A stretch of 64,000 nt of DNA from Candidatus Calditenuis fumarioli. GTDB taxonomy: Archaea; Thermoproteota; Nitrososphaeria_A; Caldarchaeales; Calditenuaceae. Below the pieces are notes generated by a model that searched no databases, had not been told where the DNA came from, and was given only the letters and a program-made list of their open reading frames with translations. The DNA is taken from NCBI GenBank assembly GCA_030059665.1, contig JANVYR010000001.1, positions 608,001 through 672,000 of the forward strand, given 5' to 3'. The translations under genes were made by a program, and so were the position numbers. Numbering within the stretch: the first letter of the stretch is position 1; each line of letters starts with the position of its first letter. Shown piece by piece: positions 1,924 to 21,557 of the stretch.

Positions 1924-3534
1924 TCAGCCGGCCGGTCGGACGCTCAGGTAGGGCTGGAGAACCCGCTCCAGGTACTCGGCCCCCAGGTCGTGGAGGTAAG
2001 GGCCGAGGCGGGGGCCGCTCTCCCGGTTCAGCAGGACCCTGTAGAAGGTCCTGAAGGTCACCACGGGGTCGACGCCCATGCTCCTCGAGACGTCGAAGAC
2101 CGCCGACTGGATCTCCTCGGGGCCAGCACCGGACTTGATGACCTCGAGGACCCTCGCCATCACCTCGGCCACCTTCGGGTCCACCTCCACCCTCGGAGCC
2201 GCAGCCTCCCTCTGGCCCAGGTCCCTCAGGTAGTTCACGGCGTAGTAGAGCCTCCTCCTGGCGTCCTCGTCGACGGCGTACCCGTAACGCTGGAGCCTCT
2301 GGAGGACGAACTCCTCGATCCTGTCCTGGGGGGCTATCTGGGCCAGCTGGAGGAGGAGTCTGTAGGGAACCCTCCGCTTCGGCCCATCGGGGACCCTCAG
2401 CAGGTGAGCGTACTCGTAGAGGCCTCGCAGCTTCGCCGTCTTGAGGTCGTTCGATTGTCGGTTGCGGAAGTAGAACTCCTCGAGCCTGTCGAGCTCCTCC
2501 ATCATCCTGGGTATCGCTGACGGCGTGACCTTCCTGGTCCTCGTGCCCCTCTTCAGAAGGAACAGCATCAGGCTCTGTGGCGATGCGTAGCGGTACCACA
2601 TCTGTGGTGTGAAGACGTTCCCCGTCGACTTGGAGATCTTCCTCCCCACCGCGTCGAGGAACATCTCGTACCTCACGTGGTATGGATGCGGGTGGCCGAG
2701 GATTTCGTCCGAGACCCAATCGTTCACCCTCACCGAGTCGGCGATGTCCTTCCCGTACGCCTCGAACCTGATGTCCAGGGCCGCCCACCTCGCCGCGAAC
2801 TCCACCTTCCAGGCGAGCTTGCCCTCGTCGGTCGAGACGTCGGCCTCACCCTCGTATCCGCACCCGGGATACCAACCCGACTTGAGCTGGACTCCCACGC
2901 ACCTGTACCTGACCTTGCCGCGGACCGGGTCGAAGTCGTAGGCCTCCGCGGTGTAGATGCGGCCGCATCCCTTGCATATGGGGAAGTAGGGCAGAACCCG
3001 GGTGAACTTCTCCTGACCGGTCATCTCCTTGATCCGCTCGCCGATCCGCGAGGCCTGGCTCAGGATCCTGCGGGCCTGCTCCGCCATCAGGCCTCTCCTG
3101 CAGGCCTCCCTCCCGGACCAGAAGACGTACTCGATGCCGGCCTCGTCCAGCGCGGACTTCAGCATCTCCTCCATCCGCTCCGCGAAGGACCTGTAGCTGC
3201 CGAAGGGGTCCTCGATGTGGCTGACCGGCCTCAGGAGCTCCTCCCTCAGCCTCTCAGGCATCCCCGCAGGCACCTTCCGGAGCCCGTCCAGGTCGTCGCA
3301 GAAGAGCACCATCTCGGAGTTGTACCCCATGTCCCTGAGGGCGAGGGTGACCGCGTAGGCCCTGACCGCGTCCGCCATGGAGCCGATGTGGGGTATCCCG
3401 CTCGCGCCGAAACCGCTCTCGGTCCTGATCAGGTCGAGCGACCTGCCCAGCTCCCTCTCGCGCCGGATCAGCCGGTGTGCCACCATGTCGATCCAAGTTC
3501 CCCTTCCTATCACCCGCTTGCCCTCTGCACCCAA
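1924..3534 (-). CDS. lysS: class I lysyl-tRNA synthetase
   Basis: HIGH-like SGIPHIGS, KMSKS-like KISKSTGN, zinc-binding CKGC and C-terminal GPRLG anticodon-binding domain. Confidence 0.97.
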   Translation of the reverse strand: MGAEGKRVIGRGTWIDMVAHRLIRRERELGRSLDLIRTESGFGASGIPHIGSMADAVRAYAVTLALRDMGYNSEMVLFCDDLDGLRKVPAGMPERLREELLRPVSHIEDPFGSYRSFAERMEEMLKSALDEAGIEYVFWSGREACRRGLMAEQARRILSQASRIGERIKEMTGQEKFTRVLPYFPICKGCGRIYTAEAYDFDPVRGKVRYRCVGVQLKSGWYPGCGYEGEADVSTDEGKLAWKVEFAARWAALDIRFEAYGKDIADSVRVNDWVSDEILGHPHPYHVRYEMFLDAVGRKISKSTGNVFTPQMWYRYASPQSLMLFLLKRGTRTRKVTPSAIPRMMEELDRLEEFYFRNRQSNDLKTAKLRGLYEYAHLLRVPDGPKRRVPYRLLLQLAQIAPQDRIEEFVLQRLQRYGYAVDEDARRRLYYAVNYLRDLGQREAAAPRVEVDPKVAEVMARVLEVIKSGAGPEEIQSAVFDVSRSMGVDPVVTFRTFYRVLLNRESGPRLGPYLHDLGAEYLERVLQPYLSVRPAG

Positions 3535-17939: not shown

Positions 17940-18362
17940 ATGGAAGGCGAGCTCAGACCCGAGATCGAGGACTGGTTCTATGAGGCCTGCGTCGACCTCG
18001 AGGAGGCGGAGGACGCCCTCAGCAGGGGAAGGAACAACTGGGCCTGCTTCGCAGCCCAGCAGGCCGCAGGGAAGGCCCTCAAGGCAGCGTACCTCGCGAT
18101 CAAGAGGAGGCGCTTCCCTAGGACCCACGACCTCCTCGAGCTTTACCTCGAGCTCCGGGGTGAGATCTCAGTCGGTGACGAGGGGAAGATCGGGCTCCTC
18201 TCGTCCTTCTACGAGCTGTCGAGATACCCCAACGCGGGCGTCAGGAGACCCTCCAGGTCGATCTCAAGCGACGTTGCCCGGGAAATGCTTAACCTCGCTA
18301 AGGAGGTAGTGAGGACGGTCGGTGAGAGGATTGGCCTCGCGTGCGGCCCCCAAACTCGGTGA
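17940..18362 (+). CDS. HEPN domain protein (toxin of HEPN-MNT pair)
   Basis: ACFAAQQAAGKALKA, Rx4H motif RFPRTH and RYPNA. Confidence 0.9.
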   Translation: MEGELRPEIEDWFYEACVDLEEAEDALSRGRNNWACFAAQQAAGKALKAAYLAIKRRRFPRTHDLLELYLELRGEISVGDEGKIGLLSSFYELSRYPNAGVRRPSRSISSDVAREMLNLAKEVVRTVGERIGLACGPQTR

Positions 18363-18690
18363 CCTCGGTTTGCCCGAAGACGTGAGGAGGAGGATCGAGA
18401 GGGCCGTCGAGGTGATCAGGAGCGTCGCGGCCGACGCGAGGGTTCTGCTCTTCGGGAGCTTCGCCCGAGGGGACTGGCTCGAGGAGAGCGACATCGACCT
18501 TCTGGTGATATCCGACGCGTTCGGGGGGATGAGCTACCTCGAAAGGCTCGAGAGGATAAAGAGGGCCCTTCTGGAGAACGGCCTCCCGAGGGTCCACGTG
18601 ATACCGCTGACGTGGGGCGAGCTTGAGGAATTGGGTGAGAGGAGCGTCGTGATCAGCGACGCGCCTGAGTATGCCGTGGAGGTGGTCTGA
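18322..18690 (+). CDS. minimal nucleotidyltransferase (MNT antitoxin)
   Basis: LFGSFARGDWLEESDIDLLV matches GSx10DxD; overlaps the HEPN gene. Confidence 0.9.
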   Translation: MRGLASRAAPKLGDLGLPEDVRRRIERAVEVIRSVAADARVLLFGSFARGDWLEESDIDLLVISDAFGGMSYLERLERIKRALLENGLPRVHVIPLTWGELEELGERSVVISDAPEYAVEVV

Positions 18691-18773
18691 TTCCGAGATC
18701 TTCTGCTGTGTTAGCCCTCAACTTTCCTCGCGAGAACGACGAGTTCAGCCGAGAAAACGCGAAATCTCCGTTG

Positions 18774-18875
18774 CGGGCCCGGTGGGACTCGAACCCACGA
18801 CCTTCCGGTTAACAGCCGGGCGTTGAAGATATTGGGGGAATACCCCAATATACTCTTCCGCTGAGCTACGGGCCC
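18774..18875 (-). tRNA. tRNA-Asn(GTT) with 30-nt non-canonical intron at 24/25 (intron 18823-18852)
   Basis: GGGCCCG acceptor stem, GCTC/GAGC D-stem after intron removal, loop CTGTTAA, GTGGG-TTCGAGT-CCCAC T-arm, G73; CCA not encoded and C27-A43 mismatch. Intron has central helix GAAG/CTTC with 3-nt bulges AGT and AAC. Confidence 0.93.
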
Positions 18876-18900
18876 ACGTACTGATTATTTTCCATCTTAG

Positions 18901-18910
18901 CATTTAAACC
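18901..18910 (-). promoter_or_regulatory. TATA box for the intact tRNA-Asn gene, located inside the inserted element
   Basis: TTTAAA at 18903-18908, 28 nt upstream of the tRNA 5' end, in AT-rich context. Confidence 0.7.
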
Positions 18911-19055
18911 TTAGTAGACGAAAGAAGACACCGTTCGGATGAGCGTCAGCTCCGTCGATCTCTGCTCATCCTCATCGCTTACCGAAATCACATGATTAAC
19001 TCGATGATAAGAAAGGGAGTGATTTCAGTTAGCAGATGGTTGTCAGTATTGTTTA

Positions 19056-19168
19056 GGGGAGCCGGAATGAGGACCTCAGGCATTCGGCTGTTAATTGCTT
19101 CATCCCCCCTCGCGGTAGGTCTGCATTCGGCGCTCTATTGCCCAGGTCCCCATCCGGCTCTTTCCCCC
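19056..19168 (-). ncRNA. bridge/seek/tigRNA-like dual-guide RNA targeting intron-less tRNA-Asn DNA
   Basis: A ~17-bp stem encloses two GCAA-[9 nt]-GAAUGC units separated by a GCGA-capped hairpin. Guides are UAGAGCGCC (19129-37) and UUAACAGCC (19086-94). Confidence 0.88.
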
Positions 19169-19172
19169 GTTC

Positions 19173-19949
19173 TCACCTCTTCATCGCTTTTAGTGTATTC
19201 TTTACGGTTTTCAGGACCTCCCGCACCTCTTTGCCCTTGATCTTCTGCCTTCCCTTCACACTAATTGTCAGCGATTCTGTCGCATCTTTCAGCATTTTGT
19301 TGTACTTTCCGTCGTTCGGATAGTAGTTACCAGTATAGGTCAATATCTTCCTCAGCCCTAAGCTGAAGTCCACGTACAACAGCAGTTGGACCAAAGCTAC
19401 CCTGCCGTAGAGGCATTTGCCTGAGCTGATCCTCAATCTCTCCGATATCTGATGGATCGGTAGGAAGCTTCTCGCCAGTGCGTCTATCTCCCTGGCCAGC
19501 TTATCTTTCCGCCTCCTCAGGTGATTGATGAGATGTCTGTAGTGTGCCCTGGTCTCCTCATCGTCCGCTTCGCGTGACAGTTGCTTTACAAGTTTCAGGT
19601 GCGATTTCGTCGTCGTGTATTTGTGCAGAAGCCTTCTGACCTCCAGCTCCTTTCCTGTGAGCTCCCTGAAGAGGTGTTCCGGTATTCTAGCTAGGGCCCT
19701 GGCGTCGTCCTCGTCGCTCTTCGTCTCCCTGTACTTCTCTATGACATCAGTCCTCCTCAGGTAGAATATCCGGACGCCTCTAGCTAATAGCTCCTCGAAC
19801 TCCCTAAATCTGCTCGGTAGTATCGCATCCACGTACAGCTCGTCTCCGGCCTGAGCGGGTATGTCGCTGAGCTTCCTGAACCTCTTAACGACACCGTCGG
19901 CCACTACCACGTGATCCTTCCTCCAGTGGACGTCGGCGTAGATCTTCAT
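19173..19949 (-). CDS. IS110-family-like protein, 258 aa (RuvC-like N-domain, coiled coil, Tnp/Nop-like domain lacking the Ser-Gly loop)
   Basis: YADV, LYVDA and KSDEDDARALA give an acidic tetrad. A helical linker follows, then LRKILTYTG...KYNKMLK aligning to the IS110 C-terminal domain. Confidence 0.8.
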   Translation of the reverse strand: MKIYADVHWRKDHVVVADGVVKRFRKLSDIPAQAGDELYVDAILPSRFREFEELLARGVRIFYLRRTDVIEKYRETKSDEDDARALARIPEHLFRELTGKELEVRRLLHKYTTTKSHLKLVKQLSREADDEETRAHYRHLINHLRRRKDKLAREIDALARSFLPIHQISERLRISSGKCLYGRVALVQLLLYVDFSLGLRKILTYTGNYYPNDGKYNKMLKDATESLTISVKGRQKIKGKEVREVLKTVKNTLKAMKR

Positions 19950-20118
19950 ATCACATCACCTGCATAACCTGCATGAACGTCACCGTCAGCAAGTCATATG
20001 ATGGCGATCTATATCTGATCGTAATAGAGAAGGCAGGAGAAGCAGGGATTGATGTTAGGAACGTTGTGCGATATGTGTAGAGGATCGATCCTTCCATATC
20101 TCAAATTAACCTCCAACT

Positions 20119-20148
20119 CCGGGCGCTCTACCGCTGAGCTACGGGCCC
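20119..20148 (-). pseudogene. orphan intron-less 5' half of tRNA-Asn (left junction of the element)
   Basis: GGGCCCGTAGCTCAGCGGTAGAGCGCCCGG matches the spliced 5' half of the tRNA at 18774-18875 except for one base (T versus A in the D-loop). Confidence 0.9.
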
Positions 20149-20158
20149 TTCTCCGGGG

Positions 20159-20212
20159 GCTCCGCCAAGGCTGAACTCATCACCAAGCAGCATTCACCTC
20201 CCCGGTCATCGC
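20159..20212 (-). ncRNA. possible box C/D sRNA upstream of the original tRNA 5' half
   Basis: C-like GCGATGA, C' GTGATGA, 12-nt spacer GTTCAGCCTTGG and degenerate D box CGGA; no clean D' box. Confidence 0.3.
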
Positions 20213-20306
20213 CCCGTCAAGGACGAATCACCTATCACTTCAACTTAACCGTCCAAGCCAGGCAGGGGAACCGGTTTAAACCCGTAGGGCACAACGGGCT
20301 GCGGGA

Positions 20307-21557
20307 TTGGTCATCTACGCGGTGACGTGGGCGCAAACACCTGTTCACCACGCCCGCCACCACGACGTCATGCTCTCCGCCGCGAGGGCCTGGGGGAGGT
20401 TCGAGCTGCTCGTCGACCGATCGCCGGTCACGCCGGACGTCTTCGCGGAGGAGAAGCCCAGGTCTGCGGTAACGGTCCTGTACTCGGGCGAGAGGCCCGT
20501 CAAGGTCACGAGGCGCTCGGTGGTGGTCGAGCTTACGCCGAGGGCCGCGGAAAGCAGCGTTCGCGACCCCGAGTTCTTTCTGAGGGTTGAGGTCTGCGAA
20601 GACGGCATCCGTGTCGAGACCGACCACTTCTCCTCGGTTCCGGCACACGCGGTCCACTGCGGCGTCGCCTGCCTCCTCCCCTTCCCAACCAGTTCGGTTG
20701 GACCATTCCGTCTGATCCGCAGGCTGCCTCCGTTCACGTCGGCGAGGATCGACGCGGAGGGGCTCTTCACGGTCACCGAGAGGGCAGAGAACGTCGAGAA
20801 CGTCGTCAACCCTGAAGCTCTCCTGCAGGACCTCACCGAATCGATCTCGAGGAACGTGGGAAACAGGTGCGCGATCGCCTTCTCCGGAGGGCTCGACAGC
20901 GCGGTCCTGCTCTCGCTCATCGCCTCTACCGGGAGGAAGGTGCTCGCGGTGACGGTCGGGATGAGGGGGTCGGAGGACGTGAGGAGGTCGACCGCTGTGG
21001 CTATGGAGATGGGGGCAGATCACGTGGTCTGCGAGCTGGACGAAGAGGAGGTGCGAGACCTCTCCGCTTACCTGAAGCGCGTCCTTGACCTCCGGAGGCC
21101 CATGGACCTCGCTCTGGGAGTCATCTTCCACAGGGTCGCGCTCGAGTCGGCGAGGAACGGGTTCAGGCAGCTGATCTCCGGACAGGGAGCCGATGAGCTC
21201 TTCGGGGGATACGCGAAGTACCTCAGGGCCTACAGGCAGCACGGACCGCGCGGCGCGGAGCTGGAGATGCTCAGTGACCTCGAGGAGCTCTGGGGGTGGG
21301 GGATCGTGAGGGACTTCAACGCCGCGGCCCTCGGAGGCTGCCACCTCACGCTGCCGTACCTGAGCAGGAGGGTGATCGCCCGTGCCCTCTCGGCGGGGAC
21401 GGAGCTGAAGGTCGACGGCCAGCGAAGGAAGCTCTTGCTGAGGGCCATCGCCCGTGAGCTCGGCCTACCGGGTTCCGTCGTGGAGGGTGAGAAGAAGGCG
21501 GCGCAGTACGGGAGCAAAGTCGAGCGGGCGGTGAGGAAGGTCCTCGGGATGAAATGA
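20307..21557 (+). CDS. asparagine synthetase-like ATP pyrophosphatase (no N-terminal catalytic Cys)
   Basis: PP-loop AFSGGLDS, SGQGADELFGGY and KKAAQYGS motifs. Confidence 0.85.
   Translation: MVIYAVTWAQTPVHHARHHDVMLSAARAWGRFELLVDRSPVTPDVFAEEKPRSAVTVLYSGERPVKVTRRSVVVELTPRAAESSVRDPEFFLRVEVCEDGIRVETDHFSSVPAHAVHCGVACLLPFPTSSVGPFRLIRRLPPFTSARIDAEGLFTVTERAENVENVVNPEALLQDLTESISRNVGNRCAIAFSGGLDSAVLLSLIASTGRKVLAVTVGMRGSEDVRRSTAVAMEMGADHVVCELDEEEVRDLSAYLKRVLDLRRPMDLALGVIFHRVALESARNGFRQLISGQGADELFGGYAKYLRAYRQHGPRGAELEMLSDLEELWGWGIVRDFNAAALGGCHLTLPYLSRRVIARALSAGTELKVDGQRRKLLLRAIARELGLPGSVVEGEKKAAQYGSKVERAVRKVLGMK

Follow-up and report, generated by a model that had tools for sequence, protein, structure and literature searches.

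A Caldarchaeales element that interrupts and rebuilds a tRNA-Asn gene and probably finds its insertion site by a dual-guide RNA

Candidatus Calditenuis fumarioli (GCA_030059665.1) carries an element of ~1.3 kb that interrupts its tRNA-Asn gene. The element is read on the minus strand of a 64,000-nucleotide (nt) stretch of DNA, JANVYR010000001.1 positions 608,001-672,000, which is the whole stretch analysed here and is called the window below. On one side it leaves an orphan fragment of the old gene; on the other, a new 5′ exon and an intron precede the resident 3′ part, and the gene is thereby rebuilt. Between these lie the gene of a RuvC / coiled-coil / Nop-domain protein and a structured RNA with two guides, which spell the element's own empty tRNA site. 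We hold it highly probable that this RNA guides the choice of the insertion site. On balance, we also favour reading the element as a minimal member of a Caldarchaeales mobile-element family that chooses its site by an RNA guide, with a nuclease-based mechanism as the best explanation; that the chemistry itself is a nuclease combined with host repair is an evenly balanced proposition.

Guides that match the uninterrupted tRNA site

The RNA occupies a GC-rich segment, 19168-19056 (coordinates refer to the minus strand of the window unless marked otherwise) and begins directly past the stop codon of a 258-amino-acid (aa) open reading frame (ORF; 19949-19173). It holds an internal 19-nt repeat, i.e. 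two frames of the form GCA-A-U-[9 nt]-AA-YGC that lie 43 nt apart, and folds with an energy of -49.1 kcal/mol (z -3.5) in this copy. In the consensus of eight close loci, an outer stem of 11 bp and a GCA/UGC closing helix lead to a symmetric internal loop, beyond which come an inner YGC/GCR helix and an apical loop or hairpin; each strand of the internal loop reads A-U-[9 nt]-AA in these loci. Compensatory pairs occur in the stems across the eight loci, including a U-A to C-G compensation in the inner helix. The apical hairpin of this copy has a kink-turn (K-turn)-like GCAGA/GAUGAAGC motif. We found no tandem guide array between 17000 and 22000, and all related loci read likewise have a single unit; there is no second variable loop in the element, and both guides reading the target lie in its sole internal loop. 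No canonical C and D boxes, RUGAUGA and CUGA, frame the guides, the best Rfam C/D family being sR10 with 13.6 bits vs a cut-off of 45.

The guide-1 slot UAGAGCGCCG (19137-19128) has the sense of tRNA positions 20-29 and matches the old fragment, not the new exon, while the guide-2 slot UUAACAGCCG (19094-19085) is antisense to positions 29-38; the frames hold TAGAGCGCC(G) and TTAACAGCC(G), respectively, at these coordinates. Each 10-nt slot opens with a conserved scaffold U, hence the guides themselves are 9 nt. As read from the sequence, guide 1 (sense, positions 21-29) would pair with the bottom strand and guide 2 (antisense, positions 29-37) with the top strand. Guide 1 of this copy pairs at 8/9 bases, its last base G facing C29, and guide 2 at 9/9; both reach position 29, which gives a 17-bp target. 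The initial annotation of the window had both guides matching the empty site exactly, within a 19-bp target. Guide 2 bears this out, whereas guide 1 does so only if the scaffold U is counted, in which case the nine letters TAGAGCGCC match exactly in this window; the match beyond chance stands, and the target shrinks to 17 bp. With guide 1 in the sense and guide 2 in the antisense orientation, each has to read a different DNA strand, and they can act only jointly, on double-stranded DNA.

The scaffold is constant among related loci, and the guides vary with the neighbouring tRNA. Next to tRNA-Thr(GGU) in L002, the guide-1 and guide-2 slots are TAGAGCACCG and TTACCAAGCC; the corresponding pairs are AAGAGCGACG and TTAAAAGCCC at tRNA-Lys(UUU) in L003, TAACGGCGCA and TCCTGAACCC at tRNA-Leu(CAG) in L011, TAAGGCGGCG and TTTAGGAGGC at tRNA-Arg(CCU) in L051, and TAGAGCGGTC and TTTAAGAGCC at tRNA-Lys(CUU) in L053. 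L009, from Caldiarchaeum subterraneum, the species of a 2012 study discussed below, has TGGAGCGACC and TTTACCAAGC at tRNA-Thr(GGU). In eight loci, the two guides read neighbouring halves of the tRNA site, guide 1 as sense and guide 2 as antisense. Of 12 close loci, 8 contain an exact reverse complement of guide 2 in their own 680 nt of downstream sequence, vs 0 of 121 non-cognate pairs. Covariation of the guides with the flanking tRNA in homologues, named in the initial annotation as a check on its proposal, was thus borne out.

Guide 1 can be compared with the old allele wherever a 5′ fragment survives. It matches this fragment at 9/9 bases in L002, L011 and L051, and at 8/9 here, and it fits the new exon less well than the old fragment in all four of these loci. 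The guides therefore describe the pre-insertion allele, not the resident gene. The new exons of L011 and L051 have a different D arm; in L011 the D stem is compensated, with GGA/TCC for GCC/GGC.

Within the window no site matches the target with two mismatches or fewer, and the single site with three mismatches is the intron-split gene itself (0.03 expected by chance). The whole host genome likewise lacks an intact target for any of its three guide RNAs, and no intact targets of the L012, L013 and L031 guides were found in their own, incomplete, genomes, which fits self-avoidance. Because its own genome holds no perfect target, the function of a ribonucleoprotein (RNP) formed by this RNA must lie with other DNA molecules, in which the gene is intact.

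Some partial matches were noted in passing. The 9-mer TAGAGCGCC has 29 copies in this GC-rich genome. The gene of tRNA-Tyr(GUA), G000:C1:588564-588691, which has a 51-nt canonical intron, contains TAGAGCGCCCGGCTGTAGA and so shares 17/19 bases with the Asn target; its guide-1 site is as in tRNA-Asn and its guide-2 site differs at two distal bases, making it a natural near-cognate off-target. At L012/L054, guide 2 mismatches the adjacent intron-bearing tRNA, and an exact 9-mer lies further downstream, ~620 nt from the guide RNA, in a segment that resembles a tRNA, GTGGTGTAGAGCCTCGTATGG, where guide 1 is without a partner.

The rebuilt gene, its empty counterpart and the sister copies

Along the minus strand, the locus begins with the orphan 5′ fragment (20148-20119; GGGCCCGTAGCTCAGCGGTAGAGCGCCCGG), which comprises positions 1-31 of the original, intron-less tRNA-Asn(GUU), ends TAGAGCGCCCGG, retains the native upstream region and contains the guide-1 site at 20130-20122. 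There follow the left end and a 169-nt leader ahead of the ORF (20118-19950), beginning with AGTTGGAGG at 20118; this left-end sequence varies among copies, being GAGCGTGG in L011 and GCGTAAG in L051. Past the ORF and the guide RNA lie a pyrimidine-rich tract and a hairpin, and then a TATA box, TTTAAAT (18908-18902), ~30 nt upstream of the new tRNA start. The box is kept in sister copies and, judged by the usual spacing of archaeal promoters, would serve as a promoter element. The element-borne replacement 5′ exon (18875-18853) spans tRNA positions 1-24. It is joined to a 30-nt intron (18852-18823), which lies in the D stem at position 24/25 and splits the guide-1 site, and to the resident 3′ part of tRNA-Asn, positions 25-73 (18822-18774). 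The first bases of the latter, CGCCCGG (tRNA positions 25-31, 18822-18816), duplicate the end of the old fragment, and the 23-nt 5′ exon is present twice, as a direct repeat of old fragment and new exon with 96% identity. GC content is 0.48-0.55 inside the element vs 0.62-0.67 in the flanks. All parts that the initial annotation had listed were found, in its order, and so was the lower GC content of the island; its statement that the element supplies promoter, 5′ half and intron agrees with the TATA box, the 5′ exon and the bulge-helix-bulge (BHB)-type intron read here.

The rebuilt gene (18875-18774) matches the Rfam tRNA model with 47.2 bits (E 2.8e-8) and a 38-nt insertion in the D arm. ARAGORN found no tRNA in the window with default settings and, with its intron option, miscalled Asp(atc); the Rfam model was required. 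Because the rebuilt gene is the sole tRNA-Asn gene in the 1.57-Mb genome, it must be functional, which agrees with the essential tRNA target proposed in the initial annotation. The intron at 24/25 folds into a relaxed BHB, with a 4-bp helix of exon GAAG and intron CUUC, 3-nt bulges containing both splice sites, and then an intron hairpin. A single T-to-A change between old and new 5′ exon generates the GAAG arm of this splice helix. The intron is homologous to the introns of sister copies.

Joining the outer flanks reconstructs the empty site as TAGAGCGCC-C-GGCTGTTAA, and the intact target sequence as TAGAGCGCCCGGCTGTTAA. A natural counterpart exists: in a congeneric genome (G002), the same upstream flank runs into an intact, intron-less tRNA-Asn gene, GGTAGAGCGCCCGGCTGTTAACCGG, which exactly matches the reconstructed empty site and whose 5′ part is identical to the orphan fragment. 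The same intact gene sequence is present in three genomes (G008, G015 and G016) from a sister genus within the family, so that the empty site deduced in the initial annotation is found in nature. The intact gene, syntenic in G002, indicates that the organism of the window represents the derived, occupied state.

An acceptor stem GGGCCCG is common to 6 of 9 tRNA-adjacent loci (Asn, Lys-UUU, Lys-CUU, Arg-GCG, Arg-CCU and Arg-CCG). The 5′ exon of the element is generic in this respect, and the shared acceptor stem would let the cassette work after jumping between such tRNAs.

The host genome has four members of the family. Besides this copy there are two sister copies with the same RNA scaffold and 87% and 75% protein identity, which sit in other tRNA genes, and a relative with 35% identity (L004), whose RNA is different and near which no tRNA was seen. 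More distant members (~30% identity) have an RNA of the form GGCCGG-AUGA-guide-hairpin-guide-CCGGCC, and their 3-kb flanks gave no convincing guide match. Copies in metagenome-assembled genomes (MAGs) tend toward contig ends. In the homologue P0005, at L010 of a Caldarchaeum MAG, the N-terminal part (2930-3000, plus strand) has an in-frame stop (VKRFYVDVHRLGNKRRKNKND*), by which this copy looks like a pseudogene. Copy number, low GC content and presence/absence polymorphism together point to a selfish element that finds its insertion site by an RNA guide.

The module is not confined to small elements. At tRNA-Thr(GGU), the L002 module closes a 12.1-kb island (L055, G000:C1:745700-758100), with the old 5′ fragment at C1:745799. 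Its cargo includes XdhC, an enzyme of the molybdenum hydroxylase / CO-dehydrogenase type with its three subunits, an ATPase resembling HerA/TrwB, and regulators of the winged-helix class. The island has no integrase, the guide module being its only recombinase-like gene, just as the RuvC-Nop protein is the only ORF of the 1.3-kb element, which has no tyrosine integrase.

A direct repeat of 6-7 nt (tRNA positions 25-31; 25-30 in L051) stands at both junctions of four loci, a Campbell-like arrangement. Its interpretation as a target-site duplication made by a fixed TasR-type cut was rejected on account of the register, which differs between loci (4+3, 5+1 and 4+1+2 nt). A circular form would carry the junction TTCAACGCCCGG-AGTTGGAGG, and by sequence comparison the guides match only its central 7 nt. 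Contigs of three DNA runs and one RNA run, a data type that drops rare forms, showed no empty-site or circle joint for 18500-20500, and those of the DNA runs no excision joint. Joints recorded as 'skips 1320' have different anticodon arms and represent other tRNA genes.

Several features stand in or beside the element. At 18937-18971 there is a hairpin of 8 perfectly paired bp, GGATGAGC ... GCTCATCC, which has GAUGA and CUGA-like motifs and which the sister copies L002 and L003 lack. Just upstream of the old tRNA-Asn fragment, at 20155-20185, there is a C/D-box-like sequence, TGATGAGTTCAGCCTTGGCGGAG, with a sub-threshold match to Rfam sR60 (21.3 bits, E 0.067); it is conserved in the syntenic flank of G002 and hence may be a small RNA co-transcribed with the tRNA. 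Past the 3′ end of the tRNA, on the plus strand (17940-18690), overlapping HEPN (PF05168, E 4.7e-25) and nucleotidyltransferase (PF01909, E 5e-13) genes form a pair in the usual toxin-antitoxin-type arrangement; that side of the tRNA is not syntenic with G002.

The protein and its relatives among known systems

Single-sequence searches of the 258-aa ORF against Pfam and NCBIfam gave no meaningful match. The protein falls in a family that, clustered at 50%, has ~166 representatives, and the recovered genomic loci are all from Caldarchaeales / Nitrososphaerota hot-spring genomes. An alignment of 37 members served as the family profile; genome contigs were scanned with a 6-member alignment, and metagenome contigs gave four more loci. 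The profile matches TasR (9MTY) with E 7.5e-9, TasH with E 1.5e-5 and IS621 with E 2.2e-4. The AlphaFold 2 (AF2) model (pLDDT 96) retrieves ISCro4, IS621 and TasR over its full length with a Foldseek probability of 1.00. VIA-align gave Z-scores of 14.8 for TasR (241 residues aligned over 1-258), 13.1 for ISCro4 and 12.8 for IS621, and the C-terminal part superposes on TasH (Z 13.4) and more weakly on Nop5 (Z 7.5-7.9).

Of the 37 members, 35-36 have the acidic residues D6, D41 and D82, and 28 have D79. The motif K-S/T-D-x-x-D-A reads KSDENDA here, vs KNDENDS in TasR and KTDTVDA in IS621. The loop that bears the serine nucleophile of IS621 is ~14 residues shorter in the family, with no conserved Ser there; PF02371, the Tnp domain with the catalytic serine, is matched by none of the 37, and PF01548 weakly by 7. 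By these features, the protein is an enzyme of the RuvC / coiled-coil / Nop kind, in which the metal site is apparently live and the IS110-type serine is absent. It is probably a dimer, as suggested only by the precedent of TasR and Nop5 and by the two-fold symmetry of the RNA.

The closest likeness is to TIGR-TasR, for which tandem targeting with one guide per DNA strand was shown experimentally (PMC12045711); the biological role of TIGR-Tas has been described as open (Faure et al., 2025; PMC12045711). The RuvC / coiled-coil / Nop architecture is shared, TasR is the best profile and structural match, and the acidic motif is similar. Both systems have two 9-nt spacers with short conserved flanks that address different strands of one contiguous 17-18-bp site, and in both the 3′ ends of the guides point to the centre, as derived from published TasR cut sites. 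The layout also resembles stem-loop tigRNA units with box C / box D anchors, and the spacers fall within the 8-12 nt that characterise TIGR-Tas guides. For RNA-guided double-strand cleavage with staggered 3′ overhangs, as in TasR, the conserved acidic residues and the 6-7-nt junction repeat inside the guided site give no more than indirect evidence. TIGR-TasR differs in having arrays of 5-15 units instead of one, flanks of CCA...UG instead of GCA...AAYGC, and a distribution mainly in viruses and candidate phyla radiation (CPR) bacteria, whereas the present module belongs to a mobile element in a cellular chromosome, which carries a tRNA repair cassette and whose guide spells its own empty site.

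The IS110/IS1111 elements with bridge-RNA (seekRNA) recombinases (IS621, ISCro4; PDB 8WT6, 8WT9, 9T56) are like it in overall fold (Z ~13, Foldseek 1.00), in the K-S/T-D-x-x-D-A motif and in the DEDD RuvC-like N-terminal domain. They too are small, insert sequence-specifically and encode in cis a structured RNA loop that reads both target strands. In contrast to these, the element described here has no serine loop or Tnp-domain signature, one RNA loop instead of a target and a donor loop, its RNA downstream of the ORF, a junction repeat of 6-7 nt vs a 2-nt core, and unconserved ends. The initial annotation had called the ORF IS110/Tas-like; profile and fold agree, but with the IS110 serine and the donor loop missing, recombination of the IS110 kind becomes less likely. 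The system thus works like TIGR-Tas and IS110 and is a full member of neither, lacking the array of the former, and the serine domain and two-loop RNA of the latter.

The insertion itself is not new. In the tRNA-Thr(GGU) gene of Caldiarchaeum subterraneum, Sugahara et al. (2012; PLoS One 7:e32504, PMC3293823) reported an insertion of 1,868 bp that has a fragment of the tRNA 5′ end, an ORF of 813 bp and, at 24/25, a new intron, and they proposed it as a model of how tRNA genes are disrupted; the element was multi-copy and heterogeneous in the population. A machine-learning classifier designated ORF 'b' as a putative DNA recombinase, and an origin from a pNOB8 plasmid was suggested (PMC3293823). 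This element belongs to the same family: ORF 'b' is P0004 (H1UCX7_CALS0, 270 aa), 43-46% identical, and the layout is the same. The 2012 account had neither a guide RNA nor the TasR/IS110 fold, and thus no match between guides and the empty site; L009 as read here has the guide pair for tRNA-Thr. Hence the initial annotation went too far in knowing no described system with this combination. Our literature search, made mostly without subscription journals, found no paper linking TasR or bridge RNAs to archaeal tRNA disruption, and guide RNA, TasR/IS110 fold and guide/empty-site match are new in the sense that no paper of the literature searched contains them.

Other elements share single traits. 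Plasmids and viruses of Archaea that integrate by an SSV- or pNOB8-type tyrosine integrase likewise target tRNA genes, of which they duplicate a part, and the gene still works afterwards; here there is no such integrase, the 5′ half and promoter are replaced rather than the 3′ half, and an intron is added. Homing endonuclease genes in archaeal introns and the RNA-guided nucleases TnpB/IscB are alike in that the nuclease recognises only the uninterrupted site, which the insertion destroys. The TnpB guide of IS200/IS605 elements reportedly also reads the empty donor joint. Homing endonucleases differ in being protein-guided, and TnpB/IscB in an unrelated RNA architecture and, in IS605, a separate transposase, TnpA, of which there is none here, where a dual guide reads two strands. 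With box C/D small RNPs (sRNPs) only the Nop domain is in common: guide 1 is complementary to no transcript of the locus, and the acidic residues are conserved here, whereas the N-terminal domain of Nop5 is inactive and binds fibrillarin.

How the element may be installed

We infer that the RNA is expressed and forms an RNP with the protein encoded just upstream, and that this RNP cleaves DNA. The symmetric internal loop would present the two 9-nt guides, guide 1 to positions 21-29 of the bottom strand and guide 2 to positions 29-37 of the top strand. Only the uninterrupted, intron-less tRNA-Asn gene would be recognised, in the tandem two-strand mode of TIGR-TasR, and a hydrolytic RuvC nuclease would then make a staggered break in the middle of the site. 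DNA joining would follow by copying from an occupied allele, i.e. by homing or gene drive, either between copies of the chromosome or following a transfer of DNA; repair-mediated capture may be an alternative route. The host would survive on what the element supplies, namely a promoter, positions 1-24 as a generic 5′ exon, and an intron to be removed by the archaeal splicing endonuclease. The intron and the base changes of the new exon would destroy the guide-1 site and render the occupied gene immune. The missing Ser loop and the single guide module without an array favour a TasR-like over a bridge-type mechanism, and the somewhat closer relationship to TasR and the unconserved element ends are further points in favour of a nuclease.

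The strongest competitor, which we consider rather unlikely, is direct RNA-guided recombination by IS110-like logic. The protein would itself join an excised, probably circular element to the chromosome, with exchange in the 7-bp core CGCCCGG (positions 25-31) by RuvC/DDE-type chemistry without a serine intermediate. Likeness to IS621 and ISCro4 in fold and motif is as strong as that to TasR; the Campbell-type structure, with an identical 6-7-nt repeat at both junctions of four loci, is what such an exchange would leave; and the module is the sole recombinase-like gene both of the 1.3-kb element and of the 12.1-kb, plasmid-like island with its HerA/TrwB ATPase and no integrase. Colonisation of at least seven different tRNA genes would also be easier with a real transposase. 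Against this, the IS110 serine-bearing loop is missing and no conserved Ser replaces it. With one RNA loop, moreover, the donor junction would go unread: the guides fit the predicted circle junction in the central 7 nt only, and the left ends of the element are not conserved. The contigs of the three DNA runs, in themselves a weak test, contain no circle or excision joint.

Less probable still, and in our view a distinctly unlikely case, is that the RNP acts as an addiction or exclusion device. It would destroy DNA with an intact tRNA gene, such as chromosomes that lost the element or competing integrative plasmids and viruses with attachment sites copied from this tRNA, the insertion having been made by a lost enzyme or by host recombination. 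A host genome without an intact target is the state that such a device would enforce, TasR drove plasmid loss in E. coli (PMC12045711), and archaeal integrative elements use tRNA genes as attachment sites (PMC3293823). The absence of any other recombinase from the 1.3-kb element and the 12-kb island argues against it, and so does the identity of the guide-read site with exactly the interrupted site at every informative locus. In addition, the attachment sites known from Archaea are mostly copies of the tRNA's 3′ part.

The RNA could also act on RNA, as in a box C/D-like sRNP that binds the tRNA-Asn transcript via guide 2, either to modify it or to help the intron-bearing precursor to fold or splice. 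Guide 2 is indeed complementary to the anticodon arm of the transcript, the Nop domain is common with Nop5 (Z 7.5-7.9), and the apical hairpin has the K-turn-like motif. We regard this as very improbable: guide 1 runs in the sense of the tRNA, with which it is thus unable to pair, yet co-varies with the old allele (9/9 in three of four loci, 8/9 here); the RuvC acidic residues are conserved, unlike in Nop5; and canonical C/D boxes around the guides and Rfam C/D families at threshold are absent. That the two 9-mers are leftover tRNA pieces without guide function has next to no likelihood, for although TAGAGCGCC is a frequent 9-mer, both sit in a repeated structured frame beside a Nop-domain gene, one sense and one antisense, and the pattern recurs with different tRNAs (8/12 exact vs 0/121 controls) and with compensatory changes in the stems.

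The nuclease-based reading that we favour has observations standing against it as well. Pure homing accounts neither for the first colonisation of a new tRNA species nor for the Campbell-like structure, and the junction repeat, always within the guided 17-18 bp, shifts its register relative to the guide centre by 1-2 nt. The intron-bearing site retains 16/19 target bases. In 4 of the 12 close loci (L013, L031, L048 and L052), guide 2 is off by 1-2 bases or there is no matching tRNA nearby; these may be decayed or rearranged copies. The upstream 5′ fragment of L003 (L003 2735-2775, minus strand; G000:C2:493447) is non-cognate: it is Lys-CUU-like and ends at position 35, inside the anticodon loop, so that it cannot pair with the present tRNA-Lys(UUU) 3′ half, which suggests a later rearrangement or a second insertion event. 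Finally, metatranscriptome contigs from one RNA run, which could be DNA carry-over, cover the tRNA (18774-18888) and, within the ORF, 19725-19877, and not the guide RNA; this gap speaks neither for nor against its expression.

A bolder proposal, which we offer tentatively, would make the serine-less RuvC-Nop protein and its single dual-guide RNA a complete natural RNA-programmable insertion system and an evolutionary link between TIGR-Tas and IS110, installing elements of 1.3 to 12 kb by itself at 17-18-bp sites, which two 9-nt guides would specify, and being a main generator of non-canonical tRNA introns, orphan halves and split genes in Archaea. The family is placed between the TasR nucleases and the IS110 recombinases, and its system is compact and thermophilic (258 aa and ~100 nt of RNA), with guides naturally reprogrammed to at least seven tRNA genes, which recommends it for biochemical work. 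It would give dual-guide targeting of the TIGR-Tas type a natural job, the choice of a mobile element's insertion site. The origin of non-canonical introns, orphan fragments and split genes among archaeal tRNAs has long been a puzzle, for which it offers a testable cause: the element brings the intron, and if the old and the new 5′ exon recombined, either a scar consisting of the intron alone would remain or the halves would become scattered.

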